64,000 nt of DNA, taken from contig CAWFJP010000010.1 of assembly GCA_963816145.1 (NCBI GenBank), positions 35,531-99,530 on the forward strand, in the 5' to 3' direction. This document shows, in pieces, positions 3,909 to 22,870 of the stretch. The notes below the pieces were generated by a model. It had not been told where the DNA came from. It did no database searches and saw nothing but the letters and a program-made list of their open reading frames with translations. This DNA is from an uncultured delta proteobacterium. GTDB lineage: Bacteria; Desulfobacterota; Binatia; UBA9968. The position numbers and the translations under genes are program-made. Numbering within the stretch: the stretch's first letter is position 1; every line of letters starts with the position of its first letter.

Positions 3909-3941
3909 GTTTAATGCACTTCTTCGGATGTCTAGGAATTC

Positions 3942-4886: not shown

Positions 4887-5705
4887 ATGTCGATCATAAC
4901 CATCGCTCACGGGGCCTATAGCGGCGGTAATGCGATCGCCGATATCGTTGCCAAGACTCTCGGTTACCAATCCATCGATCGGGAGGTGTTGATTGAGGCG
5001 AGTAAGCGTTACGGGATTCCAGAAGCAAAGTATGTCGAAGTTCTCGAGGCCGAAAGCCGCTGGTGGGAGCGCTGGCGCGAGAGTCTGAGGCTCTACCGGA
5101 TCACCTTGCAGGCGGCGATGTGTGAAGTCGCTCAAGGCGGCCAATTGGTCTACCACGGCCGAGCCGGACAGCAGCTGCTACCTGGCATCGGTCATGTCTT
5201 GCGGGTGCTGATTGTCGCGCCAATGGACTATCGCATCGGCGTGGTGCGTGTGCAGAAGGGCATGGACGAGCAAAATGCGCGGCAGTTTATTCATGAACTC
5301 GATCGAGTGCGCGGCCGGCGTTTTCGCGCCTTGTTCAACGACGATTGGCAAGACCCTGTGGGCTACGATCTCGTGCTCAACAGTGGGCGGTTAAGCGCAG
5401 AAACTGCCGCGTCAATCATCGTCGAATTATCAAGGCACAGCGAGTTTCAACTGACGCCGAGTTCCAAGACAGCGTTCGATGATCTGACCACGACCGCACG
5501 AGTGCAAGCAGCGTTGATCACGTCGCAAAAGACTCGCAACGTGGTTCTGAACATTCGCAGTGAGGCCGGCCGGGTCAGTATCTCGGGGATTCTCGCCGAC
5601 CCGGAACTGGAAAAAGAGGTTGTGCGCATCGCCAAGACTGTGCCGGGAGTCGCTGAAGTTGTTACGGACATCGAGCCGCCGCCCATGGAATATATGCACC
5701 CGTGA
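4887..5705 (+). CDS. Cytidylate kinase-like family protein with C-terminal BON domain
   Basis: AGGAG SD; IITIAHGAYSGG, VYHGRAG, DPVGYDLVLNS; C-terminal GRVSISG..AKTVPGVAEV (BON). Confidence 0.85.
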   Translation: MSIITIAHGAYSGGNAIADIVAKTLGYQSIDREVLIEASKRYGIPEAKYVEVLEAESRWWERWRESLRLYRITLQAAMCEVAQGGQLVYHGRAGQQLLPGIGHVLRVLIVAPMDYRIGVVRVQKGMDEQNARQFIHELDRVRGRRFRALFNDDWQDPVGYDLVLNSGRLSAETAASIIVELSRHSEFQLTPSSKTAFDDLTTTARVQAALITSQKTRNVVLNIRSEAGRVSISGILADPELEKEVVRIAKTVPGVAEVVTDIEPPPMEYMHP

Positions 5706-5767
5706 AGTTTGGGTGCTTAGTTGTGAATATTTGACGTTACCGAGTGGTGTGGGCGTGGCTATTAGCA

Positions 5768-6265
5768 ATGACTGCTAGCGACGAAGAATTCATGCGCCTA
5801 GCACTGGCTCAGGCAGAGGAAGCCGCGCGCCAGGACGAGGTGCCGGTAGGTGCGGTGGTCGTTTGCAGTGGAACGGTTGTCGGCACCGGCTACAATCAAC
5901 GCGAGTCCTGCCAAAATCCTTTGTGCCATGCCGAAATCGCCGCCATCGACGCGGCGGCGAAGCGGTTGGGGAAGTGGCGCCTGAGCGACTGTTCGATTTA
6001 TGTCACTCTCGAGCCCTGCATCATGTGTGTCGGAGCGATTTTACAAGCTCGTTTCGCCAAGTTGGTGTTCGGTTGCCTCGATGCCAAGGCCGGTGCGGTT
6101 GAATCTCTTTATCGTTTATGTGAGGATCGACGCCTTAATCATCAACTCCCAGCGGTCGGTGGTGTGCTGGCCCACGAAACCGGAGTGATTCTGGCGGAGT
6201 TTTTTACACGCCTGCGAGCGCGTAAGCGCGAGTGCAAAATTGGGGAGAGGTGGCCGAGCGGTTGA
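5768..6265 (+). CDS. tadA: tRNA adenosine(34) deaminase
   Basis: DEVPVGAV, HAE, TLEPCIMC, DAKAGA, RLNH motifs. Confidence 0.95.
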   Translation: MTASDEEFMRLALAQAEEAARQDEVPVGAVVVCSGTVVGTGYNQRESCQNPLCHAEIAAIDAAAKRLGKWRLSDCSIYVTLEPCIMCVGAILQARFAKLVFGCLDAKAGAVESLYRLCEDRRLNHQLPAVGGVLAHETGVILAEFFTRLRARKRECKIGERWPSG

Positions 6266-6333
6266 AGGCGCTTGACTCGAAATCAAGTGTACGGGGAACC
6301 GTACCGGGGGTTCAAATCCCTCCCTCTCCGCCA
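6244..6333 (+). tRNA. tRNA-Ser(CGA)
   Basis: CTTGA-CT-CGA-AA-TCAAG; variable arm GTACGG/CCGTAC; CCA; 5' end overlaps the last 22 nt of tadA. Confidence 0.96.
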
Positions 6334-6489
6334 AAGTCCTTTCTTGCTGATCTCAAATGAAGTAGTTGCAATCCGGTGGTGCGCCAAGCACGATCCATGC
6401 GACCTACAGGACCGAGTCCTGTACCTGCGATCACCCCACGATTGGCCCCGAGCCAAGACAGTCAAATCTTTACCCTTGTACCACTCTAG

Positions 6490-6740
6490 AGCCAAGGGCG
6501 CCGACGAAATAATGCGTGTTGTAAGCCGGCGACTTGGCGTCAAAAACAAAGAGATCCTAGGGAAACAAGCACGGGATATGGGAAAATGAGCCGCGGCGTT
6601 GGAGACGTTTTGCCCGTACGGGCAGATGAACCAAGCGTCGAACGGGAAAGTGCTGGCGGGCTCGACCACACGACGGTGAGCCATGAGCGGAAGCGGGTGC
6701 AGGAGGGTAAGCGGCGTGGCAGCGCCCGCCTCTCATGTGC
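6490..6740 (+). pseudogene. Frameshifted remnant of a DnaA-C-like HTH, as found at the C-terminus of some Y1/RAYT-type transposases
   Basis: Fragments in different frames: EIMRVVSRRLGV..EILGK, ALETFCPYGQMNQASNGKVL, GGLDHTTVSHERKRV (compare DnaA GGRDHTTV). Confidence 0.45.
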
Positions 6741-7016
6741 CGATGCCGCAGAGTTCCGCTTACCTGCTAGCGCAGTCACAAGTTTATAAACGGCTGGTAC
6801 CCTAGGTGACCGGTGCGGTCAGCACGCAATTAGAACGGTCCATATAAATAACGTTCCGGTTCTGTGCCAAAACCGGATGTCAAACGGTAGCACTCCCTAA
6901 CCACCCCAAAATGAAAAAGCCTGGGAATCCAGGCACTTTCACACTGACAATCATTTCTTGATTTTTTATTTTAGGCCCCGTAAAAGCAATTTGACACCCT
7001 ACTATGGGCTGGGCTA

Positions 7017-8141
7017 GTGAGATTCCAGGGCGTCACCGCGCTCGCGGATTTGCCGACTTTGGCTTTGCGTATGACAGGATTAACCATGCATAATGCGAAG
7101 AATATGCATACTGCGAAGAAAACGCGCGGTTACCTCTATCGACTGACAACGATTGGGCTGTTGTTAGTGGCCTGGTTCTGTAGCACGCTATTCGTCCCTT
7201 CCCTCTTTGCCGCTGAAGCGAAGGACAAAGAACCGGAAGGCAAGGTGGTGTTCTACTCCACCATGGGCAATGAGCACTCGAAGATCTTTGCCAGTGCGTT
7301 TCGGCAACTTTACCCAAAGATTGAACCTGAGTTTTATTCGACAGGCTCAGCGCCATTGGCGGAGCGTGTTCTCAACGAAGCGCGCGGCGGCAGGCATTTA
7401 TGGGACCTGGTGATCACTACGCCGTTTTACACTCAACTTTTCATGAAGCGAGGTCTGCTCGCCGCCCACAATTCTCCGGAGCGGAAATTTTACCCAGATG
7501 GCTATAAGGACAGCAAAGGGCTGTGGACCTCGACTTATACTAACTACGCCGTCTTTGGCTACAACACCAAGCTGGTCCCGCAAGTTCGGGTCCCCAAGTC
7601 ACATGGGGATCTGCTCAAACCGGAATGGCGCGGCCAGGTCGGCATGGATGCTAGGCCCTACGAGTGGTTTGCCGCATTCGTGAATCACATCGGGGAAGAC
7701 AAAGGTTTGGCTTTCATGCGGGCGCTGGTGCAACAAGAACCGCAATTGCGCAACGGCCGTACTCTCGTCGGTCAACTGGTCGCTGCCGGGGAAAATGCCG
7801 GCTCGCTGACCGCTTTTTCACAGAATTTTGAGAACATGAAACTGAAAGGCGCGCCGGTGGATTGGGTGGCGCTCGATCCGGTGGTTGGTTATCTTCATCC
7901 GCTATCGCTTTCGGCAAAGGCGCCGCATCCGGTCGCCGGTAGGCTATTTATCGATTTCTTGTTGTCCGCCAAGGGCCAGGACATCATGCGCTCTTTGCAG
8001 CGCATCCCCGATCGCATCGACACTCTTCCCGACACGCGTCGGCTAGTGGAAGGTATCAAGCCAGTGTTTCCGTCGGCGGATGTGCTGGACAATTTGGATC
8101 GCTATATCAAACTTTTCGATACTATTTTTAAGCGGTCGTAG
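7017..8141 (+). CDS. ABC transporter substrate-binding protein (FbpA/AfuA-like); true start probably 20-30 codons downstream
   Basis: Signal-like segment; EGKVVFYST, GYNTKLV..PKS..DLLKPEWRG, APHPVAGRLF. Confidence 0.85.
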   Translation: MRFQGVTALADLPTLALRMTGLTMHNAKNMHTAKKTRGYLYRLTTIGLLLVAWFCSTLFVPSLFAAEAKDKEPEGKVVFYSTMGNEHSKIFASAFRQLYPKIEPEFYSTGSAPLAERVLNEARGGRHLWDLVITTPFYTQLFMKRGLLAAHNSPERKFYPDGYKDSKGLWTSTYTNYAVFGYNTKLVPQVRVPKSHGDLLKPEWRGQVGMDARPYEWFAAFVNHIGEDKGLAFMRALVQQEPQLRNGRTLVGQLVAAGENAGSLTAFSQNFENMKLKGAPVDWVALDPVVGYLHPLSLSAKAPHPVAGRLFIDFLLSAKGQDIMRSLQRIPDRIDTLPDTRRLVEGIKPVFPSADVLDNLDRYIKLFDTIFKRS

Positions 8142-8356
8142 CAGACGAAATGCGCCGATCGGCCACAAGTATCTATACCGCATGACCTTCTGATCGATTC
8201 AACCAAGTGCGTGATCTAGAAAAAAATATTCAAATGCCAGCGGAACAAAAATCCTTGGCCGCCGAGCGTAAATTTGGATTCGCGAACGCGAAAATTTTGC
8301 TCCCGAAGTGGTTGGACAAAAGCACTTTTACCTTGCGTTTATGAGCGCTACCGAAT

Positions 8357-8382
8357 CAAATCATCGGCGCCGATTGTCAAGT
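8357..8382. promoter_or_regulatory. Conserved 26-bp upstream box with palindrome ATCGGCGCCGAT (copy 1)
   Basis: CAAATCATCGGCGCCGATTGTCAAGT is identical at 17192-17217. Confidence 0.6.
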
Positions 8383-8449
8383 TTCGTTTACCGGAATTCT
8401 CTTTAAATTCCATCAATCTCCCAGAGCAAAAACCTCATACTTTCCAGCC

Positions 8450-8478
8450 TTGTCTTCAATGTTACGCAAGCGTATAAG
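8450..8478 (+). promoter_or_regulatory. Putative sigma70 promoter of the NRPS
   Basis: TTGTCT-N17-TATAAG; same arrangement (TTGTCC-N17-TATAAG) at 17288-17316. Confidence 0.6.
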
Positions 8479-8536
8479 CGCGATCATACATGGCTGGACG
8501 GCAGACAATGACTTAAATTCCCGTCGGCGAGGCATC

Positions 8537-11500
8537 ATGAAATTTCCAGCAGAACAAGACGCTATACGGGCCAACTGTTTTCAATCGTCGGGACCGTTCA
8601 TTGAGTTCTCGATCCAAGATGTCGAGATGTCGATTCCGGCGCGGTTCGAAAAGATCGTCAAACAGCATCCAGATACGATCTCGGTCAAGACGAGCGACCA
8701 TAGATGTCCGACATACGCGGAACTCAATCACGAGGCGAACCGGGTAGCTCACGCGATCTTGGCCCAACGCGGAAATACTGCCGAACCGATAGGAATCTTG
8801 TTTCAGAATAGCATTGAGCAAATCGCGGTTATGCTCGGAGTTCTGAAAGCAGGCAAATTTTTTGTTCTTTTGGATCCGTCATTTCCAAAAGCAAGGGTCG
8901 AAAGCGTATTGAAAGACTCGCATGCGGAGTTGGTCATCACAGACCGGCACAATTTACTCTTCGCTCATGAATTGGGATGCAAAGACGATCGGCTAATGGA
9001 ATTCGAATCCATCGATTCGAGGCTTTCGCGCCACAATCCGTGCCCGTCAGTCGCTTCTAGCGCGCTCGCGTATCTCGTCTATACTTCCGGTTCGACGGGA
9101 CAACCCAAAGGCGTGATGCAGAGTCACAGAAACGTTTTGCACAACATAATGCTGCGCACGAACGTGACCCCAGTCTACGTCGAAGACAGAATCGCGTCCT
9201 TGGCCGCTGGCACTGCGCACGCGGTTAGCAATACTTTCTTCGCACTCCTAAATGGCGCGGCGTTATTCCCTTTTGATGTCAAGAAAGAAGGAATCGCTCC
9301 TCTCGCCACATGGCTCCAGCGCGAAAGGATTACATTACTCTGGATCAGCTCACCGCTATTCCGCAGTTTCTGCGATGTCCTGACAGGAAAGGAGGACTTT
9401 TCAAATCTTCGCCTCCTCCGACTCTCAAGCGAGACAATTTACAAAGCTGATATTGATTTGTACAAACGCTACTTTCCATCTAACTGTCCACTATTTGTCG
9501 GGCTTGCTTCGAGCGAAACGGGACTACTTCGGTCCTATTTTGTCAATCACGAAACTATCATCGCAGGCACGGAAGTGCCGGTAGGCTACGCAGCCGAGGG
9601 CAAAGAAATCTCACTTTTAGACGATAATGGCAATTCGGTTGGTTACAACCAGGTCGGTGAGATCGTTGTCCGGAGTCGCTTTTTATCTCCTGGATACTGG
9701 CGACGCCCCGACCTTACCGATGCAAAGTTCCAACCTGACCCGCACGATCCTGAGAAGCGTCTATATTACACTGGCGATCTGGGGTTGATGCTTCCAGACG
9801 GATGTCTGATTCACAAAGGGCGCAAAGACTTGCGCGTCAAAATCCATGGCTATGGAGTCGAGATTTCAGAAGTGGAGCAAGCTCTACGTCGTCATGAATT
9901 CATTAAAGACGCGGTGGTTGTTGCCGGCCAGGATGAATCAGGTGAGAGCCGATTAATGGCTTACTATGTGTGCTCGCGCCCACCAGCGGTGACTCTCACA
10001 CAGCTACGAAGTTTTTTGACCAAGGATCTTCCTGATTACATGATCCCTTCGGTATTTGTGCCGCTTGATTCGATGCCACTGTTACCCACAGGAAAAGTTG
10101 ATCGGTACGCGCTTCCTGATCCTGGGAAGGAGAGGCCTGAGCTTGACACCCCCTATGTTGCGCCTCGGACAGGAATTGAACAAAAATTGCGGCGGATCTG
10201 GACGGAGGTTCTCGGTCTCGATCAAATAGGCGTTCATGACAACTTCTTTGAACTAGGCGGTCATTCGCTGGCAGCCACGCGGGTGGTGTCACAAGTGATC
10301 AAAACATTTCAGTTGGAGCTGCCGCTTCAATCTTTGTTCCAATCGCCCACGGTTGCCGAGATGGCGGCCATCATCCTTGCCGAATCGACATTGGAACAGC
10401 GCATTGAGTTCGAATCACGGCTATCGCGGAAGAGCGCACTTGCTACCATCACCGCCATTCCCCGACGAGATAGCTTCTCGCCTTGTCCGTTATCCTTCGG
10501 CCAAGAGCGCCTGTGGTTCCTTAATCAACTAGAGCCGGAGAGCCCGGTCTACAATGAGTCGAGCGCACTGCGGTTGATTGGTTTGCTCGATGTGAACGCT
10601 TTACAAGAAGCCTTCAATTGCGTAATTGCGCGCCACGAAGTTCTACGGACCACGATTGCGCTTGTTGACGGAAACCCCATGCAGCGGATCGCGGCTCACC
10701 GAACGATTGAGCTAGCGGCGATAGATTTAAGTTCGCATGTCTCCAAGGACCGCGATACCGAAGCGCGCCGGCTGGTCGATGAGGCGATCCGCAGCCCATT
10801 CGATCTATCAAACGACCTCATGCTGCGCACTTTACTACTCCGGCTCGACCACCAAGAGCACATCCTTCTTGTGGTCAAGCACCATGTTGCTTCGGACGGA
10901 TGGTCCTCGGAAATCTTCTGGCGCGAAGTTGCGACGTCGTATGCTGGGTTTAGCTCTGGACAGACCGCCAATTTACCCGAGCTGCAGATCCAATACGCAG
11001 ATTACGCGGCTTGGCAGCGGAATTGGTTGGCGGGAGAAGTTTCAGAGCGTCAGCTTTCATACTGGCGAAAGCAGCTTCAAGATATTCCAGCTGCAATCAA
11101 TCTACCCACCGACAGGTCTCGTCCGGCGGTGCAGAGTTATCGAGGAGCAAGAGAATCCATCGAGCTGTCCAAGGAACTAACCCAGAAGCTCAAAGCGCTC
11201 GGCCGTAGCCATGGCGTAACGCTGTACATGACGCTTTTGGCCGCGTTTCAAACCCTGCTCTTTCGCTACACGGGGCAGGACGACATCGCCGTGGGTTCTC
11301 CCATCGCCGGTCGAACCCGCGACGAGACCGAGGGACTGATCGGCTTTTTTGTCAACACGCTGGTATTGCGAACGGATTTGACGACCAACCCAACTTTTCG
11401 TGAATTGATGGAACGAGTGAGTGGCGTTTGTTTGAATGCATACTCCCACCAAGATTTGCCATTCGAGAAAATCGTCGAGGAGTTGCACCCGGATCGACAT

Positions 11501-14500
11501 CTTAATCAAAACCCGCTATTTCAGATCGCCTTCCAACTAAACACCAATACGAGGAAACCACTAAACCTCCCTGGTCTGCGCGTTGAGAACATCGAATTAG
11601 AACACCCCATGTCGAAATTTGATTTGAGCCTATCCATGACGGACAGGTCAGAATCGATAAGCGGGCGAATTATTTACAATGCAGATCTGTTTGACGCCGC
11701 CACGATCGAGCGCATGGTCGGTCATTTCCAAGTCTTGCTCGAAGGCATCGTCGCCAACCCGGAGCAGCCGATCAGTGGACTGCCTTTGCTCACCGAAGCC
11801 GAAACGCATCAACTCCTAGTCGAGTGGAACGACACCAAGACCGATTATTTCAACGACCAGTGCATTCACCAACTGTTTGAGACTCAGGCCGAGAAGACCC
11901 CGGACGCTATAGCCTTGGTTTGCGAAGACCAGAATTTGACCTATCGCGAACTAAATAGCCGCGCCAACCAGGTTGCCCATTACTTGCAAGTTCTTGGCGT
12001 CGGTCCCGAAGCGCCCGTCGGCATCTGCCTGGAACGTTCTATCGAGATGATCGTCGGCCTGCTCGCCATACTCAAGGCCGGCGGCGCCTATGTGCCCCTT
12101 GATCCGGCGTACCCGAAAGAGCGCTTAAAGTTCATACTGGACGATTCACAAGCGCGGATTGTTTTGACGCGCCAACCTTTCCTGGATGTTAAACAATGGC
12201 CAATGGCGGGTGCCGAGTGGTGCTCGTTGGTCAGCGATACCCGTATCGAGAGAGTTTGCTTGGACCGCGATTGGTGCGACATCGAGAAAGAGAGCGGAGA
12301 GAATCTCGAAAACGAAGCAACTGCTGACAGGCTCGCTTATGTGATTTATACCTCCGGGTCCACCGGCCGGCCTAAGGGAGTTGGTATCGAGCACCGCAAT
12401 GCAGTTTCGTTTTTGACCTGGGCGCATTCGGTTTTCACCCGCGACGAATTTTTAGGCGTGCTAGCCTCGACTTCGATTTGTTTTGACCTCTCCGTGTTCG
12501 AGATTTTTGCTCCGCTGACTTGCGGCGGAACGGTGATCCTGGCGGAAAATGCGCTGGCTTTACGGACTATTGCCAATGCATCGGCGGTGACATTGCTAAA
12601 CACCGTGCCGTCAGCCATCACCGAACTGCTGAGCTTGGGAGCCCTCCCCACATCGGTGCGAGTGATCAACCTGGCCGGGGAACCGTTACGCACAGAAGTA
12701 GTGCGGAGAATCTGCGCGTCAACACCGGCGGCGAAGATCTACGATCTTTACGGGCCGAGCGAATGCACGACGTATTCGACGTGGATGCGCCGCACCCCGG
12801 AGGGCCGGCAATCCATTGGTCGGCCGATCGCCAACACGCAAATTTACATACTTGGTGGCCATATGCAGCCGGTGCCGATCGGAGTAGTGGGCGAGATTTG
12901 CATTGGTGGTTCCGGGGTGGCGCGTGGTTATTTGAATCAGCCGAAGCTGACCCAAGAGAAGTTCATCGCCGATCCCTTCAGCATCGACCCCGGTGCCAGG
13001 CTCTACAAGACTGGCGATCTGGCCCGTTACTTGCCTGACGGCAACATCGAATTTCTCGGCCGCATCGACAATCAGGTCAAAATCCGCGGTTTCCGCATCG
13101 AGCTCGGCGAGATCGAATCCGTGTTGGGGCAACATTCCGGAGTGCGTCAGAGTGCGGTGATTGTGCGCGAGGATACCGTCGACGAGAGGCTGCTGGTGGC
13201 TTACGTTGTCGCAATTGACGATCCCGCACCTTCTATTAACGATCTACGAAGCTTCCTGAAAGCAAATCTGCCAGAATACATGATACCTTCCGCCTTCGTG
13301 TTTTTGGAATCTCTGCCGTTGACAACCAATGGCAAGGTAGATCGCAAGGCGCTTCCGGTTCCCGATCAGACTAGGCCGGAACTGGACGCGATCTTTATGT
13401 CACCGCGTACTCCCATGGAGGAGATGCTGGCAGAGATCTGGGCCGAAGTCCTAAAAGTAGAGGGGATTGGCATCCATGATAATTTCTTCGATCTCGGCGG
13501 CCATTCCCTCCTGGCAACTCAAGTGGTCTCACGAATGCGTCGAGCGGTGCAGGTGGAAATTCCCTTGCGCGCCTTGTTCGAATCGCCGACCGTGGTCGGC
13601 TTGGCTGCTCGTATTGAAGAAATCCATCAGAAGCAACATGGACTGCAGGCTCCCCCCTTGCTTGCGGTTTCGCGGGACAAAGACCTTCCTCTTTCTTTTG
13701 CCCAGCACCGGTTGTGGTTTTTGGATCAGCTGGAGCCCGGGAGTACGGTTTATAATGTTCCCATCGCTGTCCGTATTCGAGGACCGCTGGATGTCGCAGC
13801 GCTGGAGCGAAGCATCAACGAAATAATCGCACGGCACGAGATTTTGCGGACGACGTTTTCGACCGTAGAGGGAGAAGCGGTTCAGATTATCGCTCCGTCG
13901 TCGAGCCATTCACTGCCAGTGGTGGATCTAAGCGGGCAGGCAGAGAGTGCGCGTGCGGAACAAGCGCGACGGCTGGCGCGGGAGGAAGCCTGGCGGCCCT
14001 TTGACTTGGCTCGAGGACCGCTCGTGCGGGTTACTTTACTTCGGCTTGGCCAGGAAGATCACGTTTTGCTGTTGACTCTGCATCATATTGTCTCGGACGG
14101 CTGGTCGATGAAAGTGCTTTTCCGCGAATTATCGGCTCTCTACAATGCTTTTTCCCAGAATCACCCCTCGCCGTTGAGTCAACTGCCCATTCAGTATGCC
14201 GACTTTGGCGCATGGCAGCGGCAGTGGTTGCAGGGCGAGATTTTAGAGACCCAGCTTTCCTATTGGAAGAAACAGCTAAAGGATGTTGTACCGTTGCAAT
14301 TACCGACCGATCGGCCACGGCCGGCGCTACCGAGTTATCGAGGAGCACGAGAGTCCATCGAGCTCTCGAAGGAACTGACTCAGGAACTCAAAGCGCTCAG
14401 CCGTAGCCATGACGTAACGTTGTACATGACGCTTTTAGCTGCGTTTCAAACCCTGCTGTTTCGCTATACGGCGCAGGACGACATCGCGGTGGGGGCTCCC

Positions 14501-16915
14501 ATCGCCGGTCGAACCCACGATGAGACCGAGGGGCTGATCGGTTTTTTTGTCAACACCCTGGTGCTGCGGTCTGATCTTTCCGGCAATCCTCCGTTTCGAG
14601 AGTTACTAGGCCGGGTGCGAGAAGTTGCCCTGGGGGCCTACGCTCATCAGGATCTACCGTTTGAAAAACTGGTGGAGGAACTCCAACCGGAACGTAACCT
14701 CGGCCACTCGCCGCTATTTCAAGTAATGTTTGTGCTGCAGAATACGGTGGCTTCAGCTCCGGTACGAGAGTTTGCCGGTATAAAGCTTCGATTATTCGGA
14801 GTGGAGAGTGAGCCGGCGAAGTTTGACGTGATGCTAACGATGCGTGAGGGTGCGGGTGGGCTGAAAGGTTCGTTGCTCTATAACACGGACCTCTTCGACG
14901 AGGTCACCATTAAAAGGATGGTGGGCCATTTTCAGACCTTGCTGGAAGGTATCGTTGCCCATCCCGAACAACGCATAAGCGAATTATCCGTACTCACGGA
15001 TTCGGAGAGACACCAGCTGTTGGTCGAGTGGAACGACACCAAGGGCGAATATCCGAGAGACAAGTGCATACATCGACTGTTTGAAGATCAGGTCGAGCGC
15101 AGTCCAGACGCAATAGCGTTGGCGAATGCAGACCAGCAGCTAACTTACGGAGCGCTGAACAGACGGGCTAATCAATTAGCACATTACTTGCGAAAACAAG
15201 GAGTGGGCCCGGAAGTTCTGGTTGGCATCTGCATGGAGCGCTCTCTCGATCTCATCGTCGGACTGCTGGGAATTCTTAAAGCCGGTGGAGCCTACGTTCC
15301 CTTAGAGCCTGACTATCCCAAGGAACGACTGGCATTCATGCGAGAAGACGCCGAAGTTTCGCTTCTTTTGACGCAGGAAAAATTCCTGTTTGAAATGAGT
15401 CGGCAGCCAGTGGTGTGTCTGGATCGAGACAGGGAGAAAATTGCCCAACAGAGCGATCGCAATCCGGTGAGTCAAGTCCGCGCAGATAACTTGGCCTACG
15501 TGATCTATACGTCAGGATCTACGGGACGACCAAAAGGTGTTCAGATCGAGCACCAGTCGCTGGTGAATTGCTTGTGGTCTATCGGGAAACAGGTCGGACT
15601 GAACAAAAAGGATGTATTGCTCGCGGTCACGACGGTTTCCTTTGACATTGCTGCGTTGGAGCTTTATTTGCCGCTAATTGTTGGTGCAACGGTTGTCTTG
15701 GCCGGGCGCGATGATGCTCTCGATGGAAGACGAATCGTTGATCGATTAAAGAGCTCCGGTGCCACGGTGATGCAATCAACGCCGTCTTCTTGGAAACTTT
15801 TGGTGGATGCCGGATGGGAAGGCCATGACGACTTTAAGATTCTTTGTGGCGGCGAAGCTTTATCCGAGCGATTGGCTGATCAACTACTGGAGCGTGCGGC
15901 TTCGCTCTGGAATCTTTATGGTCCAACTGAAACGACGGTCTGGTCGACTACTGCAAGAGTCAAAGCGAGTAAACGACCGGTTCCAATCGGTCGGCCCATC
16001 GCGAATACGCGTCTCTTCATTCTGGATTCTCATTTGCACCCGGTTCCAATTGGAGTGCCGGGGGAGTTGTGTGTTGGCGGAGACGGCGTAGCACGGGGCT
16101 ATCGGAACCGCCCCGACTTGACCGCGGAGAGATTCATTCTAAATCCTTTTAGCGATCCGCCAGAAGCGCGGCTTTATCGCACCGGTGATCTCGCTCGATA
16201 CTTACCAGATGGTAACATTGAGTTTTATTGCCGAATCGACAATCAGGTGAAGATACGGGGCTATAGGATCGAACTCGGTGAGGTTGAATCCGTACTTGCT
16301 CAACACCCCGCCATCCAACAGGCAGTGGTTATTGCAAGAGAAGACACACCGGGGGGCCGTCGCCTAGTGGCCTACTGCGTCGCTACTGCGGACTCTAACC
16401 CTTTGCCTCACGATCTGCGCAGCTACTTAAAACACAAGCTCCCTGACTACATGATTCCGTCGACTTTCGTGCTCTTGGATTCACTGCCGCTCGCTCCCAA
16501 CGGCAAGCTCGACCGAAAAGCACTGATGGCTCCCGACGGCGGCCGACCCGAACTAGACGATGGCTTTGCCGCCCCAAGGACTCCTCTCGAGGAGACTCTC
16601 GCTAATATCTGGGCCAAGGCCCTCAGACTCGACAAGGTAGGAATCCACGACAACTTCTTCGATCTGGGCGGCCATTCCCTGTTGGCCACGCAAGTGATGT
16701 CACGAATGCAGAACGCGTTTTCCGTCGAGTTGCCGTTACGTCAAATGTTTGAATCGCCGACGGTGGCCGAATTGGCAATCATCATCACGGAGACCCAACA
16801 CAAGCGCGGAAGCGACACCCAGCAAGCGCAGATACTACGTGAGCTAGATTCGATGACGGAAGAAGACGCACAGGGGCATATGGATGAAATTGATTCGACA
16901 ATCACCAAAGAATAG
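8537..16915 (+). CDS. NRPS with architecture A(atypical)-T-C-A(Ala)-T-C-A(Gly)-T; no TE, R or E domain
   Basis: Three YTSGSTG.PKG, three GGHSL, two HHxxxDG; codes DLFNNALTYK and DILQLGLVWK read by eye; start set at MKFPAEQ by homology with 17377. Confidence 0.93.
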   Translation: MKFPAEQDAIRANCFQSSGPFIEFSIQDVEMSIPARFEKIVKQHPDTISVKTSDHRCPTYAELNHEANRVAHAILAQRGNTAEPIGILFQNSIEQIAVMLGVLKAGKFFVLLDPSFPKARVESVLKDSHAELVITDRHNLLFAHELGCKDDRLMEFESIDSRLSRHNPCPSVASSALAYLVYTSGSTGQPKGVMQSHRNVLHNIMLRTNVTPVYVEDRIASLAAGTAHAVSNTFFALLNGAALFPFDVKKEGIAPLATWLQRERITLLWISSPLFRSFCDVLTGKEDFSNLRLLRLSSETIYKADIDLYKRYFPSNCPLFVGLASSETGLLRSYFVNHETIIAGTEVPVGYAAEGKEISLLDDNGNSVGYNQVGEIVVRSRFLSPGYWRRPDLTDAKFQPDPHDPEKRLYYTGDLGLMLPDGCLIHKGRKDLRVKIHGYGVEISEVEQALRRHEFIKDAVVVAGQDESGESRLMAYYVCSRPPAVTLTQLRSFLTKDLPDYMIPSVFVPLDSMPLLPTGKVDRYALPDPGKERPELDTPYVAPRTGIEQKLRRIWTEVLGLDQIGVHDNFFELGGHSLAATRVVSQVIKTFQLELPLQSLFQSPTVAEMAAIILAESTLEQRIEFESRLSRKSALATITAIPRRDSFSPCPLSFGQERLWFLNQLEPESPVYNESSALRLIGLLDVNALQEAFNCVIARHEVLRTTIALVDGNPMQRIAAHRTIELAAIDLSSHVSKDRDTEARRLVDEAIRSPFDLSNDLMLRTLLLRLDHQEHILLVVKHHVASDGWSSEIFWREVATSYAGFSSGQTANLPELQIQYADYAAWQRNWLAGEVSERQLSYWRKQLQDIPAAINLPTDRSRPAVQSYRGARESIELSKELTQKLKALGRSHGVTLYMTLLAAFQTLLFRYTGQDDIAVGSPIAGRTRDETEGLIGFFVNTLVLRTDLTTNPTFRELMERVSGVCLNAYSHQDLPFEKIVEELHPDRHLNQNPLFQIAFQLNTNTRKPLNLPGLRVENIELEHPMSKFDLSLSMTDRSESISGRIIYNADLFDAATIERMVGHFQVLLEGIVANPEQPISGLPLLTEAETHQLLVEWNDTKTDYFNDQCIHQLFETQAEKTPDAIALVCEDQNLTYRELNSRANQVAHYLQVLGVGPEAPVGICLERSIEMIVGLLAILKAGGAYVPLDPAYPKERLKFILDDSQARIVLTRQPFLDVKQWPMAGAEWCSLVSDTRIERVCLDRDWCDIEKESGENLENEATADRLAYVIYTSGSTGRPKGVGIEHRNAVSFLTWAHSVFTRDEFLGVLASTSICFDLSVFEIFAPLTCGGTVILAENALALRTIANASAVTLLNTVPSAITELLSLGALPTSVRVINLAGEPLRTEVVRRICASTPAAKIYDLYGPSECTTYSTWMRRTPEGRQSIGRPIANTQIYILGGHMQPVPIGVVGEICIGGSGVARGYLNQPKLTQEKFIADPFSIDPGARLYKTGDLARYLPDGNIEFLGRIDNQVKIRGFRIELGEIESVLGQHSGVRQSAVIVREDTVDERLLVAYVVAIDDPAPSINDLRSFLKANLPEYMIPSAFVFLESLPLTTNGKVDRKALPVPDQTRPELDAIFMSPRTPMEEMLAEIWAEVLKVEGIGIHDNFFDLGGHSLLATQVVSRMRRAVQVEIPLRALFESPTVVGLAARIEEIHQKQHGLQAPPLLAVSRDKDLPLSFAQHRLWFLDQLEPGSTVYNVPIAVRIRGPLDVAALERSINEIIARHEILRTTFSTVEGEAVQIIAPSSSHSLPVVDLSGQAESARAEQARRLAREEAWRPFDLARGPLVRVTLLRLGQEDHVLLLTLHHIVSDGWSMKVLFRELSALYNAFSQNHPSPLSQLPIQYADFGAWQRQWLQGEILETQLSYWKKQLKDVVPLQLPTDRPRPALPSYRGARESIELSKELTQELKALSRSHDVTLYMTLLAAFQTLLFRYTAQDDIAVGAPIAGRTHDETEGLIGFFVNTLVLRSDLSGNPPFRELLGRVREVALGAYAHQDLPFEKLVEELQPERNLGHSPLFQVMFVLQNTVASAPVREFAGIKLRLFGVESEPAKFDVMLTMREGAGGLKGSLLYNTDLFDEVTIKRMVGHFQTLLEGIVAHPEQRISELSVLTDSERHQLLVEWNDTKGEYPRDKCIHRLFEDQVERSPDAIALANADQQLTYGALNRRANQLAHYLRKQGVGPEVLVGICMERSLDLIVGLLGILKAGGAYVPLEPDYPKERLAFMREDAEVSLLLTQEKFLFEMSRQPVVCLDRDREKIAQQSDRNPVSQVRADNLAYVIYTSGSTGRPKGVQIEHQSLVNCLWSIGKQVGLNKKDVLLAVTTVSFDIAALELYLPLIVGATVVLAGRDDALDGRRIVDRLKSSGATVMQSTPSSWKLLVDAGWEGHDDFKILCGGEALSERLADQLLERAASLWNLYGPTETTVWSTTARVKASKRPVPIGRPIANTRLFILDSHLHPVPIGVPGELCVGGDGVARGYRNRPDLTAERFILNPFSDPPEARLYRTGDLARYLPDGNIEFYCRIDNQVKIRGYRIELGEVESVLAQHPAIQQAVVIAREDTPGGRRLVAYCVATADSNPLPHDLRSYLKHKLPDYMIPSTFVLLDSLPLAPNGKLDRKALMAPDGGRPELDDGFAAPRTPLEETLANIWAKALRLDKVGIHDNFFDLGGHSLLATQVMSRMQNAFSVELPLRQMFESPTVAELAIIITETQHKRGSDTQQAQILRELDSMTEEDAQGHMDEIDSTITKE
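11134..11370 (+). repeat. Intragenic direct repeat in C domain 1 (partner 14332-14568)
   Basis: 237 bp; 73/79 identical amino acids (SYRGARESIEL...FFVNTLVLR). Confidence 0.85.
14332..14568 (+). repeat. Intragenic direct repeat in C domain 2 (partner 11134-11370)
   Basis: Same 237-bp block as the partner. Confidence 0.85.
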
Positions 16916-17191
16916 TTTGTCCTTCTTAGCATATTGTCCTTACAGGATCCTCCGAGAGACTCGACCGAAACCAGCGCCACAGCTTAAGAGGGTGAGATTG
17001 AACTAATTGATCTCCTACAATCGAAGTATTCATCGATTGAAACTTGCGAGATATGATTGGAGCGCCTCACAGTTCGATCCTGTGGCGAGGTTGAACTTTC
17101 GCACATCACAACTCGAGAAGGAAATCTTCGATCTAGAGCTGTCTAACCACTAGTTGCGTGTTTTCTTTATTTACCGAAATTTGAGTTCTGC

Positions 17192-17316
17192 CAAATCATC
17201 GGCGCCGATTGTCAAGTCTCATTTCTTACCGCAAGTATCTTTAAATTCCGTTAATGCAACAGAACAATAACTTCATGACTGTGAGCCTTGTCCTCAATTT
17301 GCCATAAGCGTATAAG
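17192..17316 (+). promoter_or_regulatory. Second copy of the palindromic box and sigma70-like promoter
   Basis: Identical 26-mer at 17192-17217; TTGTCC-N17-TATAAG at 17288-17316. Confidence 0.6.
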
Positions 17317-17376
17317 CACGACTATGATGCGGATTGACGATTTAAATTTCCGTGAGTGACCCCTAGGAGAAGCGGT

Positions 17377-19339
17377 ATGAATCTTCCGCCGGAACAAGAA
17401 GCTATACGAGCGAGATGTTTTCATCCATCGGGGACGTTCGTCGAGTTTCCCAAAGAAGATGTCGAGACTTCGATCCCTGAGCGGTTTGAAAAAGTCGTGC
17501 GACTGTACCATGACCGGATTGCTGTAAAAATACAGAACAGGATTCTAACGTATGATGAGTTGAACAAATCGGCGAACCGGGTGGCGCGCGTGATCCTCGA
17601 CAGGCTTGGTAGAGAGAACCGGCCCGTCGTTATCGTCTCTGAGCAGAACCTAACAGCAATCGTATTGTTGTTTGCAATCTGGAAAGCGGGAAAAATCGTG
17701 ATTGCGATAGAACCCTCCTTTCCCGCAGAGCAGATCGTCTCCACTATCAACGAGTCTCAAGCGGAGGCGATCTTAACAACCAATGACAATCTCGGACTTG
17801 CCCCGACTGTGGCCCATAGTGCGATGATCCCAATTATAAATTTCGACACGTTGACAATCGACGGTTCGGACGAAGATTTAGAATTACGGATCCCTGACGA
17901 GGCGCCGGCTGAAATTCGCTATAGTTCGGGTTCCACCGGAAAGCCTAAAGGAATCGTTCGCAGTCATCGCAGGCTTCTTAGTAGTGCAAGGTCTACGATC
18001 AACTTGGCTCACACATGCCCCGAGGATCGTCTGATCGCCCTGACGAGGCTCAGATTTGGCACTCGAGATCTACTTCGATGTTTGCTCAGTGGCGCAACTC
18101 TTTATCCATTCGATATCGAGAAAGACAGTATGGGCAATCTCGTCCGCCTGCTCAACGTAGAAAGAATAACCTATTATGAATCAGTGCCAACAATTTTTCG
18201 ATATCTGATCGGACAGTTGGACGGAAAGACAGCATTCCCATTTATGCGTCTCATTCAGCTTGGAGGGGACCTTTTATATAGGAGCGACATAACGTCGTAT
18301 AAGAAATATTTTCCGGACCACTGTATTTTAATGAACCGACTAAGTGCGGGCGAAACGGGAAATCTATGCGTATTTTTTATCGATAAGAATACAGAGATCG
18401 ACACTTCGATTGTTCCCGTCGGCTATCCGATTGAAGGTAAGCAATTATTCTTGCTGGATGAACTACGAAATAAAGTCGGAGTGAACCAAATCGGCGAGAT
18501 CGCTGTGGCCAGCCGTTATTTGTCCTCCGGGTATTGGAATAATTCCGACCTTACCAACGAAAAATTCTTTCTTAGCAATGCGGGCAGCGATGAGCGGTTA
18601 TATGTTTCGGGCGATCTTGGGCGGATGTTACCCGATAGTTGCTTGGTCTACGTCGGGCGGAAAGATGACCAGGTCAAGATCAGAGGCGCCAAACTAGAGA
18701 TCGGTGAAATTGAGGCGGTACTATCGGAACATCCGCAGATAAAGCAATCAGCGGTGGCAGCGTTCGAACGATCAAGCGGAGACAAATACTTGACCGCCTA
18801 TATAGTCCGTCGTTCTCATCGGGCACTGACGGTGACTGACATCAATGACTATCTAAGAAAGAAACTGCCCCGACTACATGATCCCATCGGCTTTCGTGTT
18901 TTTGGAATCGCTGCCTTTGACCAATGGGAAAGTGGACCGAAAGGCGTTGCCTAAACCGGATGATAAACGACCGGACCTTGGTACGCCGTTTGCTTTGCCG
19001 AGAAACGAGATTGAAACGAGTCTGATACGGATTTGGGAGGAAGTCCTTGATGTTCGTCCGATAGGGATCCACGACAAGTTTTTCGACCTAGGAGGCCATT
19101 CGCTGTCCGCGACCCGAGTTGTGTCCCGGGTTATCGAGCAGTTTCAGTTAGAAATACCGCTACAATCGCTGTTTCAGTCTCCGACTATTGCCGAAATGGC
19201 CGCGGTGATCGCCGAACATCAAGGAAAGATGTTAGACCAGAGCCAGTTGTCGGCTATCTTAGACGAATTAGGGTCGATGTCGGACGCTGAGGCTCAGCGG
19301 CTTGTGAGGGAAAGTAATTCGACCATGACCAAAAAGTAG
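17377..19339 (+). pseudogene. Stand-alone atypical A-T didomain NRPS-like protein with a +1 frameshift at C4 18868-18871 (real or sequencing error)
   Basis: AGGAG SD; MNLPPEQEAIRARCF; YSSGSTGKPKG; KKLP|DYMIPSAF restored by removing one C; GGHSL T domain in 18878-19339. Confidence 0.85.
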
Positions 19340-19622
19340 TTTGCCCCTCTTACCATTTGTCCTGGCATGATCCCTGCGCGCGGCGACAACAAGCTGCGCC
19401 GCGGATAAAGGCGGACCGGCATCGGTTCTCAGGCGATGTTCTCCATCCGTAGGCTGAGATTATTCTCCGTCAATTGAATCCTCGGGTCGTGGTACTGTCC
19501 GAGTTTTGTCCGAGAAATGAGGTGGTCTTGGTGTCACGACAGGCCTTCAACCGATCAAGCTTAGATTCAATTTACCGTTCATATCTGTCGATGGTAGCCA
19601 ATAAGAGGGGACGGTGTAGGAC

Positions 19623-19680
19623 CTCGAAATCAAGTGTACGGAGATCCGTACTGGGGGTTCAAATCCCTCCCTACCTGCCA
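19623..19680 (+). repeat. Degenerate 3' half of tRNA-Ser(CGA) (attR-like)
   Basis: CTCGAAATCAAGTGTACGGAGATCCGTACTGGGGGTTCAAATCCCTCCCTACCTGCCA; 6 mismatches versus 6276-6333. Confidence 0.85.
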
Positions 19681-20729
19681 AAAACTTCCGTCTTGTTATG
19701 AGCCATAGAATAAACCTGATGATGGTGTCTTGCCGGTGCAATCGTGTGTAACTGTCCGTCCATCGCTGCTCCAGGCGTTCGTCCAGTTTTTCAAGTAAAA
19801 CGCGATGATGATCGGATGGAGCGACGAGCCCAGGGCGATGCCATTGTTGTCGCACCAGCAGAGCCCGACCCGCACAGTCGATAAGAAGACCGAAGGCTAT
19901 CGCATTCGCTCAACCCATCCGCCCAAACGGTCGACTAGCAGGTCGTGATCGCTGGCGGCGTAATACGACAGCAAGGCGGGAGGCGGCTGGGGCTCAATGG
20001 CGGTGGGTTTGATCTTGGGACCATGCGCCCTCGTCATCGAATACGGCTTCTTTGAAGAGGGTCTCGTAAAACACTTCGATCATCACTCCCTGGCCGCGTA
20101 TTTTCGCCCCTCGCAGTGAATTCCAGATGTCTTCCCATGGTATGAGTTTCATCGGTCCTCGTTCGGCGGTGATCGATGGATGAAGGGAATTTCCGTTTAC
20201 AGATACCTGCGGTTGACGAGCGGATAGGTCGGTTGATTGCGCATTCGTGGGTCCAGACTTGGATTGTCGTTGCATCAATGCGTCCTCTCGTCCTTCGCTG
20301 TTGGTCCAAAGCAGTGCCGCGACGCGCGTATCCCTCGCAGGATTGCAAGTGCGAGATGAGCAACGACAATGCCAAGGGTCGGAGCACTTTAGATTTCCGA
20401 TACTTACGAGTAGTTGTGGGGAGACAACGCTATGATCAAGCGTAAGTTAATTTGACAGAAAATTATACGAATAATTACACTCGCTCTAGCGGATGAAAAA
20501 TCGCTCTGTTATTCAGCGGTTTAGTCTATGAACTCTTAGGTGTTTTCTGAGTCGGCCAGTTCGTAAGCAAAGTTTACAGCGTGCGCAAGATTTGTTAATC
20601 GATCCGGGGCAAACTCATTGCTCTTTCTTCTATCCCGGTTCCATCCATTGAATTCCGCTTTGTAGAAAACAACAAAACACTGTGGTAGCGTCGGTTTCCG
20701 CGTGAGTTGTACCACCGCGGTGGAAGTCG

Positions 20730-20820
<91 letters not shown>

Positions 20821-20959
20821 CGATTGGCGAGGCGTTGCTGCTGCAGCCGGTTAAATTCGATTCGATTATTTCGCGAGCGGGTAAGAAAACTTGAAACTGT
20901 GAAATTTTCGGCGTACTGTTTTAATCGAACGCTAAAGCAGTAGCTGTGTATAATCGCGC

Positions 20960-21088
20960 GGATGTCGATTGCTGATAGTTAGGTCCTGTGCAAGGCGGCC
21001 CCGTGAACCCCGTCAGGTCCGGAAGGAAGCAGCGGTAACGGCTCTCCCCTGTGCCACAGGGGCACCTGGCTGTCAGCAATGGGCATCC
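20960..21088 (+). ncRNA. ffs: Signal recognition particle RNA (small bacterial type)
   Basis: Helix 8 core GTCAGGTCCGGAAGGAAGCAGC; long closing stem GGATGTCGATTGCTGATAG/CTGTCAGCAATGGGCATCC; TATAAT at 20949-20954; upstream of dnaX. Confidence 0.93.
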
Positions 21089-21187
21089 TCACCTCGTGGC
21101 TCTCTGCTTATTTAATCTCGAATCGCCGGTCATGGGCAGGATAGCTCAGCGCCGGCAGCTTCTGGTTTAAGATTTTCCAGGGGATCT

Positions 21188-22870
21188 ATGTCTTACCTTG
21201 TTTTGGCGCGGAAATGGCGGCCGCAAAACTTCGAGGATGTCGCCGGCCAAGAACCGATCATCCGCACACTCAAGAATGCCATCAAGGCCAACCGCATCGC
21301 CCATGCTTACCTCTTCACAGGGGTGCGCGGGGTAGGCAAGACCACCGCTGCGCGGATTCTTGCCAAGGCGTTAAATTGCGAACGGGGTCCGACCGCGACG
21401 CCGTGCAATCAGTGCAGTCAATGTGAAGAGATCACCAATGGTAGCTGCATCGATGTGCTTGAGATCGACGGTGCTTCGAACCGTGGTATCGACGAAATCC
21501 GGCAAATCATCGAAAACGTCCGCTACCAGCCGGCTCAATGCCGTTTCAAGATTTACATTATCGACGAAGTGCATCAGGTTACCAAAGACGCTTTCAATGC
21601 CCTGCTGAAGACGCTGGAAGAGCCGCCACCGTCGGTTAAGTTTATCCTCGCCACCACCGAGCCGCAGCGTTTGCCGGAAACCATTCTGTCGCGCTGCCAG
21701 CGCTATGATTTTCGCCGCATCAGTTTGCGGGAAATCGTTGAACGGCTCGCTGCCATCGGCAAGAGCGAAGGGCTTAACATTACCGATGAGGCTCTGGTGC
21801 TGCTGGCGCGCGAAGCGGACGGCAGCATGCGCGATGCGCAGTCGTTGCTTGAGCAGGTGCTCGCCTGCGCCATGCCGGCGGTGGGTGACGAGCAGCGGTC
21901 GACGGTCGACGCGGCCATGCTGCAAGAGATCCTTGGTCTGGCGCAGCGTAAGTGTCTTTACGACTTGTCTCAGGCGGTGCTCGACGGCGACCCGCGCCGG
22001 TGTGTCGAGTTGGTGGCGGAGGTCATCAGCCAGGGACGGGATTTGAGCCGTTTGTCGCGCGATTTGGTGGAGCATTTTAGAAATCTGCTGGTCGCCCGTT
22101 TGTCCGCCAGCCGAGTTGGCGCCAATCGCGCTGGCGGCGCGGATGTTTCGCAGTTACTCGATCTCCCGGATCAGGAGATTGCCGACTTAGAACGACAGGC
22201 CGGTCCAGTGCCGGTGGAAGCGCTGCTCGATTATCTCGATTTCATGGCCGCGGGTGATGAAGAGGTGGGGCGCTCGGCGACGCCCCGATTTGCCCTCGAA
22301 GCGGTGCTGATCCGGTTGGCCAACTTGCCTCAGTTGCTGCCGGTTGCAGAGTTAGTCAGCCGGCTCGAACGGTTGGAAGGGCGAGCTTCCAGCGGCCTGC
22401 GGTCTACAGTTGCGGCGGAGCGTCCCAAGGCGGTTTCAATACCTGCGCCGGTCATGCCAGCGGCAGTCGCGTCACCCCCCGATGCTGTCCCAGCGGCGGG
22501 TGACGATGCCGGCAAGTGGCATGAGTTCGTAGCCTTCGTCGGCAAAGAAAAAAAGTTTTTGGCATCGCATCTCGGTGCGACGGTGGCGCTCTCGTTGCCG
22601 CCGGCGCCGCTCAAAGTCAGCGTCGCCGAACGGCATCATCTGGGTTTTCTTCAGGACGCCGATAATCTTGCCTCGCTGCGGGAGTTAGCCAAGCGGTTTT
22701 TCGCTCAGGAGGTTACGATTCAATTCGTTGCTTCGGGCGTTGATGCGGCGTCTGCCGTGGCCGCCGATGTGTCGCGTACCAGCAGCGCCGTGGATGACCG
22801 CAGTGACATGGTAAAGGAAGCGTTGCGCATCTTCGGCGGTTCGGTCCGTTCGGTGCGGCGGGAAAGTTGA
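21188..22870 (+). CDS. dnaX: DNA polymerase III subunit gamma/tau
   Basis: LARKWRPQNF, GVRGVGKTT, DEVH, SRC, GSMRDA. Confidence 0.97.
   Translation: MSYLVLARKWRPQNFEDVAGQEPIIRTLKNAIKANRIAHAYLFTGVRGVGKTTAARILAKALNCERGPTATPCNQCSQCEEITNGSCIDVLEIDGASNRGIDEIRQIIENVRYQPAQCRFKIYIIDEVHQVTKDAFNALLKTLEEPPPSVKFILATTEPQRLPETILSRCQRYDFRRISLREIVERLAAIGKSEGLNITDEALVLLAREADGSMRDAQSLLEQVLACAMPAVGDEQRSTVDAAMLQEILGLAQRKCLYDLSQAVLDGDPRRCVELVAEVISQGRDLSRLSRDLVEHFRNLLVARLSASRVGANRAGGADVSQLLDLPDQEIADLERQAGPVPVEALLDYLDFMAAGDEEVGRSATPRFALEAVLIRLANLPQLLPVAELVSRLERLEGRASSGLRSTVAAERPKAVSIPAPVMPAAVASPPDAVPAAGDDAGKWHEFVAFVGKEKKFLASHLGATVALSLPPAPLKVSVAERHHLGFLQDADNLASLRELAKRFFAQEVTIQFVASGVDAASAVAADVSRTSSAVDDRSDMVKEALRIFGGSVRSVRRES

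Follow-up and report, generated by a model that had tools for sequence, protein, structure and literature searches.

Recombination as a way of rebuilding non-ribosomal peptide synthetases (NRPSs) is, as a principle, already in print. A preprint (10.1101/2022.12.02.518901) reports a natural breakpoint within the carrier (T) domain, where the second half of T follows the tree of the condensation (C) domain downstream of it. Also, NRPS paralogs that were reshuffled by intragenomic recombination and show incongruent domain trees have been described (Baunach et al., 2021, PMC8097286; Ca. Endobryopsis, PMC11428043). Here we analyse two adjacent NRPS genes, one large and one small, of an uncultured delta proteobacterium (Desulfobacterota, Binatia, UBA9968), which lie in a stretch of 64,000 nucleotides of contig CAWFJP010000010.1 (assembly GCA_963816145.1, positions 35,531 to 99,530), hereafter called the window. 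We consider, with a probability of roughly 0.65, that the two belong, as separate members, to a large and lineage-specific family of NRPS starter units which has been shuffled between constant ends and flanks. What is new here is a family of starters flanked on either side by conserved non-coding DNA, together with a natural junction that can be read cleanly.

Starter units that occur in more than one version have a precedent. The anabaenopeptin synthetase, in work ascribed to Rouhiainen et al. of 2010, is said to possess alternative starter modules, two in one cluster, both of them loading amino acids. There as here, several loading units could feed one downstream line, but here about 28 starters that lack Asp235 are scattered over the genome. 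Small stand-alone subunits are known from RXP-type systems, in which single-module C-A-T proteins (A, adenylation domain) carry promiscuous docking domains of the beta-hairpin type (PMC6195595). In PAX-type systems a carrier-tethered C-terminal docking domain of two alpha-helices binds a single-helix N-terminal docking domain (review, PMC9113145).

As far as the preprint describes them, its natural breakpoint and the XUT design share with our locus a breakpoint inside the carrier, a T half that travels with the downstream C domain and a unit of the form T(part)-C-... From what is given there on XUT, our case differs in that a starter which probably does not load an amino acid is joined to elongation modules, and in a second type of tract, which begins in the second half of T, spans the C-terminal tail and reaches into conserved non-coding DNA. 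The exchanges in the two studies of intragenomic recombination are, in the parts that concern us, swaps of A domains or subdomains and of modules inside clusters, whereas in our case the units are single genes at dispersed sites, with non-coding elements in common on the promoter side and at the 3' side.

Two adjacent synthetase genes with similar ends

Both genes are on the same strand. The large one (8537..16915, + strand) is contained in the open reading frame (ORF) 8450..16915, which as listed begins at a TTG, while the start is probably the ATG at 8537. By Pfam it holds three AMP-binding, three PP-binding and two Condensation stretches, that is A-T-C-A-T-C-A-T, and the phmmer domain map refines this to an N-terminal extension followed by A1 and T1 (approx. 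8627-10156 and 10202-10411), C1, A2 and T2 (approx. 10487-11821, 11867-13396 and 13421-13621), C2 and A3 (approx. 13673-15031 and 15077-16516), T3 (approx. 16547-16756) and a tail (approx. 16757-16912). The small gene (17377..19339, + strand) is laid out as N-terminal extension, A (about 17470-18885), T (about 19040-19216) and tail (19217-19336); in the assembly it is broken into the ORFs 17356..18954 and 18878..19339, which overlap in different frames, and its AMP-binding, AMP-binding_C and PP-binding matches are split over them. The Pfam domains of both genes follow the order of modular (type I) NRPSs. Searched for a terminal release domain (thioesterase, TE; reductase, R; or a terminal C), neither gene gave a TE or R match in Pfam.

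A sequence-only reading of the window had listed a series of resemblances between the two genes, and a blastn dot plot bears out every one of them. The 26-bp box CAAATCATCGGCGCCGATTGTCAAGT occurs without a mismatch at 8357-8382 and at 17192-17217, was found in 0 of 100 shuffles of the window and has elsewhere in the 7.8-Mb genome, with up to 4 mismatches allowed, a single 4-mismatch copy (C29:202398; paralogs and sites of this genome are cited by contig and position). The upstream region with the first codons is 72% identical over 308 nt (17192-17498 and 8357-8658), and the proteins begin alike, with MKFPAEQDAIRANCF in the large gene (ATG 8537) and MNLPPEQEAIRARCF in the small one (ATG 17377). 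The T domain of the small gene matches T1 (19028-19203 and 10193-10368, 70% over 176 nt), and the tail with about 35 nt past the stop is 75% identical over 101 nt (19274-19373 and 16850-16950). These five similarities are real, yet they are traits of a family rather than of a local duplication. The A10 region of the small gene is in addition akin to A2 and A3 (79-83% nt over 48-95 nt), which we set aside as ordinary motif conservation, with a third-codon identity of ~40%.

Separate ancestry of the two genes

In a maximum-likelihood tree of 25 A cores the large and the small gene fall in different clades (SH-aLRT 100 and 95), and the approximately unbiased (AU) test rejects a clade of the two with p 3e-35. 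Their A cores share 39.3% identity against a family median of 41.4%, each gene being only the 24th or 11th in rank for the other, and their N-termini share 57.8% against a median of 60%; the T domains, with 67.7%, stand at the 90th percentile of the family (ranks 6 and 9). At third codon positions, where misaligned sequences give a baseline of 25%, the A cores agree in 144/434 (33%) and the T domains in 24/66 (36%), both near saturation, while 47/66 amino acids of T are identical. The N-terminus (23/45) and the tail (23/46) exceed saturation somewhat at third codons.

These last values, the adjacency of the genes on one strand and the exact 26-bp box, confined to the two of them, would fit a local tandem duplication of an A-T cassette with its promoter and terminator region, followed by gain of C-A-T-C-A-T between T1 and the tail. 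Such a history, one cassette duplicated and one copy expanded, was what the sequence-only reading had put forward, and it fails: it is hardly credible in view of the AU test, of the low identity of the A cores, below the family median like that of the N-termini, and of the near saturation of third codons in T and T1. The nearest relatives of every segment of both genes are on other contigs. The junction of T1 and C1 is shared at 80% of nucleotides with another three-module line, C3:597992, and therefore the expanded architecture was not made at this locus; an ortholog of the small gene also stands alone in another metagenome-assembled genome (MAG). Thus the two genes are not mutual closest relatives with low synonymous divergence, as would be expected of a recent tandem duplication. 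Among 30 congeners no ortholog of the large gene's A1 was found above 56% identity; the unpublished genome G005 was counted only in tallies, namely those of this ortholog search, of the flank blastn, of solute-binding proteins (SBPs) and of dnaX.

Recombination within the carrier domain

The large gene was compared with the three-module line C3:597992. While the A1 domains of the two are only 50% identical as proteins, the second half of T1, the T-C linker and C1 (10193..12123, + strand) are shared with C3:599718-601645 at 79.8% nucleotide identity over 1934 nt. Third-codon identity is 180/534 (34%) in the A1 core, 259/329 (79%) in residues 591-920 (Fisher p 3e-39) and 89/191 (47%) in residues 1000-1190. 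The upward step lies between GGHS (10256) and LELPLQ (10313), about 19 residues past the T1 serine, and the downstream end of the tract at about 11300-12123. On A cores, the AU test rejects a clade of the large gene and C3:597992 (p 5e-6). Ancestry changes abruptly in T1, and the downstream half of T and the C domain share one history, in the manner of XUT. These data show recombination with a breakpoint inside T1. The proposal that recombination took place at the end of a T domain was right in this respect, the breakpoint inside T being directly visible, and wrong in the specific history of local duplication and expansion that it was tied to.

The small gene tells of a second type of tract. 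Compared with C5:106334, its third codons agree in 135/434 (31%) of the A core and in 58/81 (72%) of the second half of T plus tail (Fisher p 1e-11), the likeness runs on into the 3' flank (88%), and the AU test rejects a clade of the two (p 1e-49). At the 5' end, the likeness to C14:680021 amounts to 77% of amino acids and 50% of third positions in the first 60-codon window, and to 50% and 18% in the window from codon 31. In either gene the nearest paralog changes from segment to segment, and both are mosaics.

It may be asked whether ends could stay alike without any exchange, held since ancient duplications by purifying selection on a docking tail, the carrier and regulatory DNA, while the A domains diverged. 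The flanks do recur beside genes of other genomes that are only ~50% identical in their coding regions, their conservation is patchy and motif-like, and the T domains of our two genes are alike at the protein level only (see the counts above). But selection on proteins does not keep synonymous sites constant, and the rises in third-codon identity within gene pairs (34% to 79% in one, 31% to 72% in another), as well as segment trees that disagree with that of the A cores (p 5e-6 or lower), make this explanation unlikely.

In the shuffled starter family that we favour, two causes would account for the similar ends. One would be family-wide conservation of the N-terminus, the carrier, the tail, an upstream element of ~250 nt and a downstream element of ~150 nt, the other would be recurrent exchange by homologous recombination or gene conversion, the tracts of which terminate within the carrier and near codon 30-45. 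A cores and elongation blocks would in this way be shuffled between constant ends. At this locus, synonymous sites clearly record how an NRPS was rebuilt in nature by carrier-domain recombination, and the breakpoint in T falls in the part of the protein at which engineers now make fusions. The locus offers a natural junction for starter-unit swaps, since it attaches to elongation modules an unusual starter unit, which, as judged from the A-domain motifs discussed below, probably does not load an amino acid.

Within the large gene, a stretch of 490 nt is 76% identical between C1 and C2 (10973-11496 and 14210-14694), well above the 65-68% found over the rest of modules 2 and 3, and this suggests conversion between the two C domains.

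A large family of starter units

When the genome itself (7.8 Mb, 31 contigs) was searched by tblastn, dozens of paralogs appeared, and a profile of the N-terminal 45 residues retrieved 28 ORFs above 50 bits, most of them of ~650 aa with the architecture A-T and often with a tail. In this search, with a hidden Markov model (HMM), the large gene scored 80.4 and the small one 100.1. The alignment shows in both the motif LPPEQEAIRAKCFHPSG...SIPxRFEK at the protein start, and after the last T both have the C-terminal tail ...L.E(L/V).(S/A)(L/M)(S/T)(D/E).(E/D)A... In our view a starter unit consists of an N-terminal helix of ~16 residues, an A domain without the Asp that contacts an alpha-amino group, a carrier domain and a two-helix C-terminal tail; most members end after the tail, and some, such as the large gene, hold elongation modules between the first carrier and the last carrier with its tail. 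Longer members of the genome besides the large gene are C3:581535 (A-T-A-T-C-A-T-C-A-T-tail), the already mentioned C3:597992 (A-T-C-A-T-C-A...) and C3:609308 (A-T-C-A-T).

Outside this genome, 4893 homologs at E <= 0.001 were obtained among 7998 scored, mostly of ~650 aa with the same N-terminus and tail, although A-T-TE forms exist as well (P0088, P0009); the titles of their sources name Candidatus Binatia, uncultured delta proteobacterium and a few Chloroflexota MAGs. The family is thus large, with 28 copies here and thousands in soil and wetland metagenomes. Sixty-two loci of other genomes, which hold 55 family N-termini, were taken for comparison. Among the latter, 37 are A-T, with a tail detected or not, 3 are A-T-TE and 2 A-T-C-A-T; there is one A-T-C, one A-T-A-T-C-A-T-tail, 3 longer forms cut at contig ends and 8 short or cut A-only ORFs. 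The expectation that flanks, N-terminus and tail stay constant while the number of modules varies holds both in the own genome and across these 55 N-termini, and the family does not keep to one fixed architecture.

Some members are of interest for other reasons. At C3:581535-591786, and likewise at G012:C57 and G014:C2, two A-T units of the family are joined in a head-to-tail fusion that lacks an intervening C domain (A-T-A-T-C...). The tail is absent from it, as are the first ~17 residues of the second N-terminus; this pattern would fit a tail and an N-terminal helix that act as a docking pair. In another MAG, a locus of about 20 kb (L028) has a tandem array of six A-T genes of the family, which resemble one another in their 5' and 3' flanks. 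A locus of the present genome (L007, G000:C29:128099-137338) begins with a copy of the 5' element followed by a decayed family N-terminus (MKLPPEGMASRDRCFRLSG..., then a stop), and ~170 nt past this remnant an NRPS ORF begins inside a C-A linker; the line has several frame breaks, contains the only TubC_N of the genome and ends with tail and 3' element. The starter N-terminal helix (residues 5-16, e.g. 8549-8584 in the window) sits where elongation modules have their C-A linker helix (...LLVEWNDT...), and the truncated line C29:128623 begins exactly at the C-A linker. Starters may derive from elongation modules after loss of the C domain.

Conserved non-coding flanks

That the two genes share an upstream region, as had been noticed from the letters of the window, is correct, and the region is part of a 5' element of ~250 nt. 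Profile searches with nhmmer place it at 8295..8542 before the large gene (E 1.8e-61) and at 17136..17381 before the small gene (E 1.3e-71), both on the + strand and each including the 26-bp box. The element is 73-81% identical across five genes (the two described here, C13:225173, C14:680021 and C29:202571), and the profile adds four weaker copies, which brings the genome to 9. Within it lie the box, whose core is ATC-N6-GAT, a pair of TTAAATTCC(C)GT repeats, hexamers that resemble a promoter and a GGAGAA before the ATG; in the small gene, TTGCCA-18-TATGAT at 17299-17328 resembles a sigma-70 site in 10 of 12 consensus positions. The 5' element would be promoter- or operator-like.

The 3' element, of ~150 nt, starts at the stop codon and is found at 16913..17048 after the large gene (E 1.9e-22) and at 19337..19483 after the small gene (E 7.1e-35), again on the + strand. 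All of its 12 copies in the genome come directly after a tail-bearing gene, whose tail ends in a ...STI(T/A)KK-like sequence, and these genes include lines that start with a different starter. Both elements always adjoin such genes, yet they occur independently of each other. Genes with a common 5' element are dispersed over the A-core tree, and therefore flanks and cores have been combined independently.

In the 62 loci of other genomes, the profile of the 5' element of our genome (G000 type) matched 7, all of the matches ending directly at the start of a family gene, and that of the 3' element matched 3, of which the one in L032 begins directly after the stop; the L032 protein is only 54% identical to its best paralog in the present genome. 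Other types of flank are common to 6 assemblies. The flanks are a conserved part of the starter unit. Their presence on both sides suggests a common regulation, and we infer that they are regulatory; if so, they could allow the regulator, and the docking partner, to be sought experimentally.

No RNA element emerged from the flanks: with Rfam at E <= 1 in 8000-21300, only transfer RNA (tRNA), signal recognition particle (SRP) RNA and overlapping matches were found. RNAalifold gave -0.29 kcal/mol for the 5' element (8 sequences) and -1.06 kcal/mol for the 3' element (11 sequences), and single folds of the 3' element were no better than those of shuffled sequences in 9 of 9 cases (z -0.9 to +1.3). 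On the + strand, no intrinsic terminator was found after the large or the small gene.

These data also bear on the idea that the 5' and 3' elements are the ends of a mobile cassette, integron-like or resembling a miniature inverted-repeat transposable element (MITE), by which a site-specific recombinase moves whole starter genes. We find it very unlikely, although flank types recur beside diverged genes in different assemblies, family genes form tandem arrays such as the six in L028 and our gene pair lies inside an island bounded by tRNA sequences. The elements have no inverted repeats and no folding, as the above energies show, so that the 3' element has nothing like an attC repeat; no recombinase gene, including an integrase, was found in the island, where 4 small ORFs were tested; the 5' element ends in a Shine-Dalgarno sequence and a start codon, as an ordinary leader does; and the two elements do not depend on one another in their occurrence.

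Frameshift in the small gene

The break in the small gene is a +1 shift at the CCCC run 18868-18871, where the reading ...KKLP is followed by CCCC and then by DYMIPSAF... in another frame. Contigs from 3 independent metagenome runs (X1, X2, X4), of soil and wetland origin and about 98-99% identical to the window, have one letter fewer at 18868, and therefore the small gene is intact in related populations; a fourth run (X3, depth 21.9) does not show the deletion. Metagenome contigs also span the junction from the large to the small gene. Either the assembly is in error at this place, or the gene has mutated very recently. The solitary ortholog in another MAG (L027), 78% identical in nucleotides over 17363-19240, is an intact gene of 669 aa; its homology to the small gene ends before the tail, and therefore it carries a different 3' end. 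Many NRPS ORFs of the genome are likewise in pieces (e.g. C3:591769, C3:596484, C3:604722, C30:347872-349651 and C31:112899/113533), and some of these may be homopolymer assembly errors, because the CCCC shift of the window is absent from other samples.

Starter A domains, N-terminus and tail

The Asp of the FDxS motif in A domains, which we take to be Asp235, binds the alpha-amino group of the substrate. In a MAFFT alignment of 74 domains, the position that this D holds in A2 and A3 is S, A, G, N or a gap in the starter A domains; the letters of the same columns are GT--AH in the large A1 and RF---GT in the small A, against FDLS in A2 and FDIA in A3. Because they lack this Asp, the starter A domains probably load a carboxylic acid without an alpha-amino group. 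The large enzyme would then join a starter acid to two amino acids and form an N-acyl dipeptidyl thioester.

Alignment with ordinary A domains begins at about residue 17, and therefore the true N-terminal extension is of ~16 residues. An AlphaFold2 (AF2) model of an intact paralog (pLDDT 85.6) confidently places a short helix of residues 5-12 on the A domain, and has tail helices at 621-632 and 636-644 with the last 8 residues disordered. Through the tail, both proteins might dock to a partner whose gene lies elsewhere, whether this is a release enzyme or a next subunit. As in the RXP type, at least as its source presents it, the subunits are small and stand alone, and terminal docking elements could allow combinatorial assembly; they differ in being A-T units with a two-helix tail. 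A docking pair of the beta-hairpin (TubC_N) kind was considered and rejected, given the sole TubC_N in the genome. The predicted two-helix tail is rather alike in form to the docking domain of the PAX type, from what the review depicts, but no sequence match to any solved chain and no single-helix N-terminal partner were identified. A complex prediction of the tail with the family N-terminal helix and A core gave a score of 0.02 and a mark of 0.32, which speaks neither for nor against binding.

Tentatively, the constant ends could be seen as a natural plug-and-play system composed of a shared promoter/operator, the N-terminal helix, the second half of the carrier with the tail and the 3' element. 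In this scheme, doubtful as it still is, ~28 co-regulated acid-loading units per genome, differing in specificity, would dock by their common tail on the same few acceptors or release enzymes, while recombination between the constant ends would exchange their A cores and entire elongation blocks. If true, it would imply a combinatorial library of N-acylated products and a continual exchange within and between the genomes of this uncultured lineage.

Several points weigh against the shuffled starter family as we have presented it. The identity step in T1 is ~19 residues past the serine and not in FFxxGGxS, where it would be placed by the preprint as far as its account goes. A sigma-70-like site is found at the small gene only, the promoter scan of the large gene's 5' element having given none. 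Purifying selection would explain just as well as exchange why the flanks are conserved between genomes, and probably both maintain their likeness. Single-sequence blastn of the flanks against 30 relatives returned 2 weak matches, both in congeners; this is not evidence of absence, because the profile searches later found flanks. Comparison of the tail with solved structures by sequence gave matches at chance level only, and the single TubC_N docking domain of the genome (C29:133722) goes with another type of C-terminus; no partner of the tail was identified. Several other family ORFs are broken which, given the CCCC case, may be due to assembly errors. Lastly, contamination of the genome is estimated at 6.7%, and the count of 28 could be slightly inflated.

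Genomic setting

Both genes are located on a 13.4-kb tRNA-Ser island (6334..19683), which comprises an SBP gene, the three-module NRPS and the A-T gene and is missing in 4/4 syntenic congeners (G036, G040, G039 and G014). In these, the homolog of 258-6364 is directly followed by the homolog of ~19990-22900, with tRNA-Ser(GGA), SRP RNA and dnaX. The left border (attL side) is tRNA-Ser(CGA) at 6244..6333 on the + strand, detected by ARAGORN and aligned to the tRNA of the relatives. The right, attR-like border at 19623..19683 (+ strand) is a decayed duplicate of the 3' ~60 nt of this tRNA, recognised by alignment, by blastn (85-90% to the 3' half of the relatives' tRNA) and by a weak Rfam match.

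Islands integrated in tRNA genes are inserted at the 3' end of the tRNA and bear at their far end a direct repeat of its 3' part. The present island agrees with them in the insertion at the tRNA 3' end, the direct repeat and the absence from relatives, and differs in that the 4 small island ORFs tested gave no integrase domain and that the tRNA 3' repeat is ~10% diverged, so that the island looks old or immobilised. Candidate joints between the two tRNA-Ser genes in metagenome data had sides of <30 letters and were taken as cross-matches of the tRNAs of other organisms.

The SBP gene inside the island (7017..8141, + strand; SBP_bac_6/1/11 by Pfam) has 43 matches in the genome (E <= 1e-40), and congeners have about as many; with that many paralogs it was useless as a synteny marker, and DnaX was used instead. 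Within 5 kb of family genes, an SBP is near 6, an NMT1-like SBP near 5, Amidohydro_2 near 4 and UbiD near 3, families too expanded for a conclusion. Three tRNA-Ser (GCT, CGA and GGA) and tRNA-Arg(ACG) occur within 18 kb (3144-3234, 3308-3384 and 6244-6333 on the left side), the CGA gene being the integration site. Beyond the island, tRNA-Ser(GGA), overlapped by a sub-threshold sX4 match, and a small SRP RNA (20730-20820 and 20977-21074; 72 bits, gathering threshold 40) stand just upstream of dnaX (21188-22870), with recR at 23342-23962.

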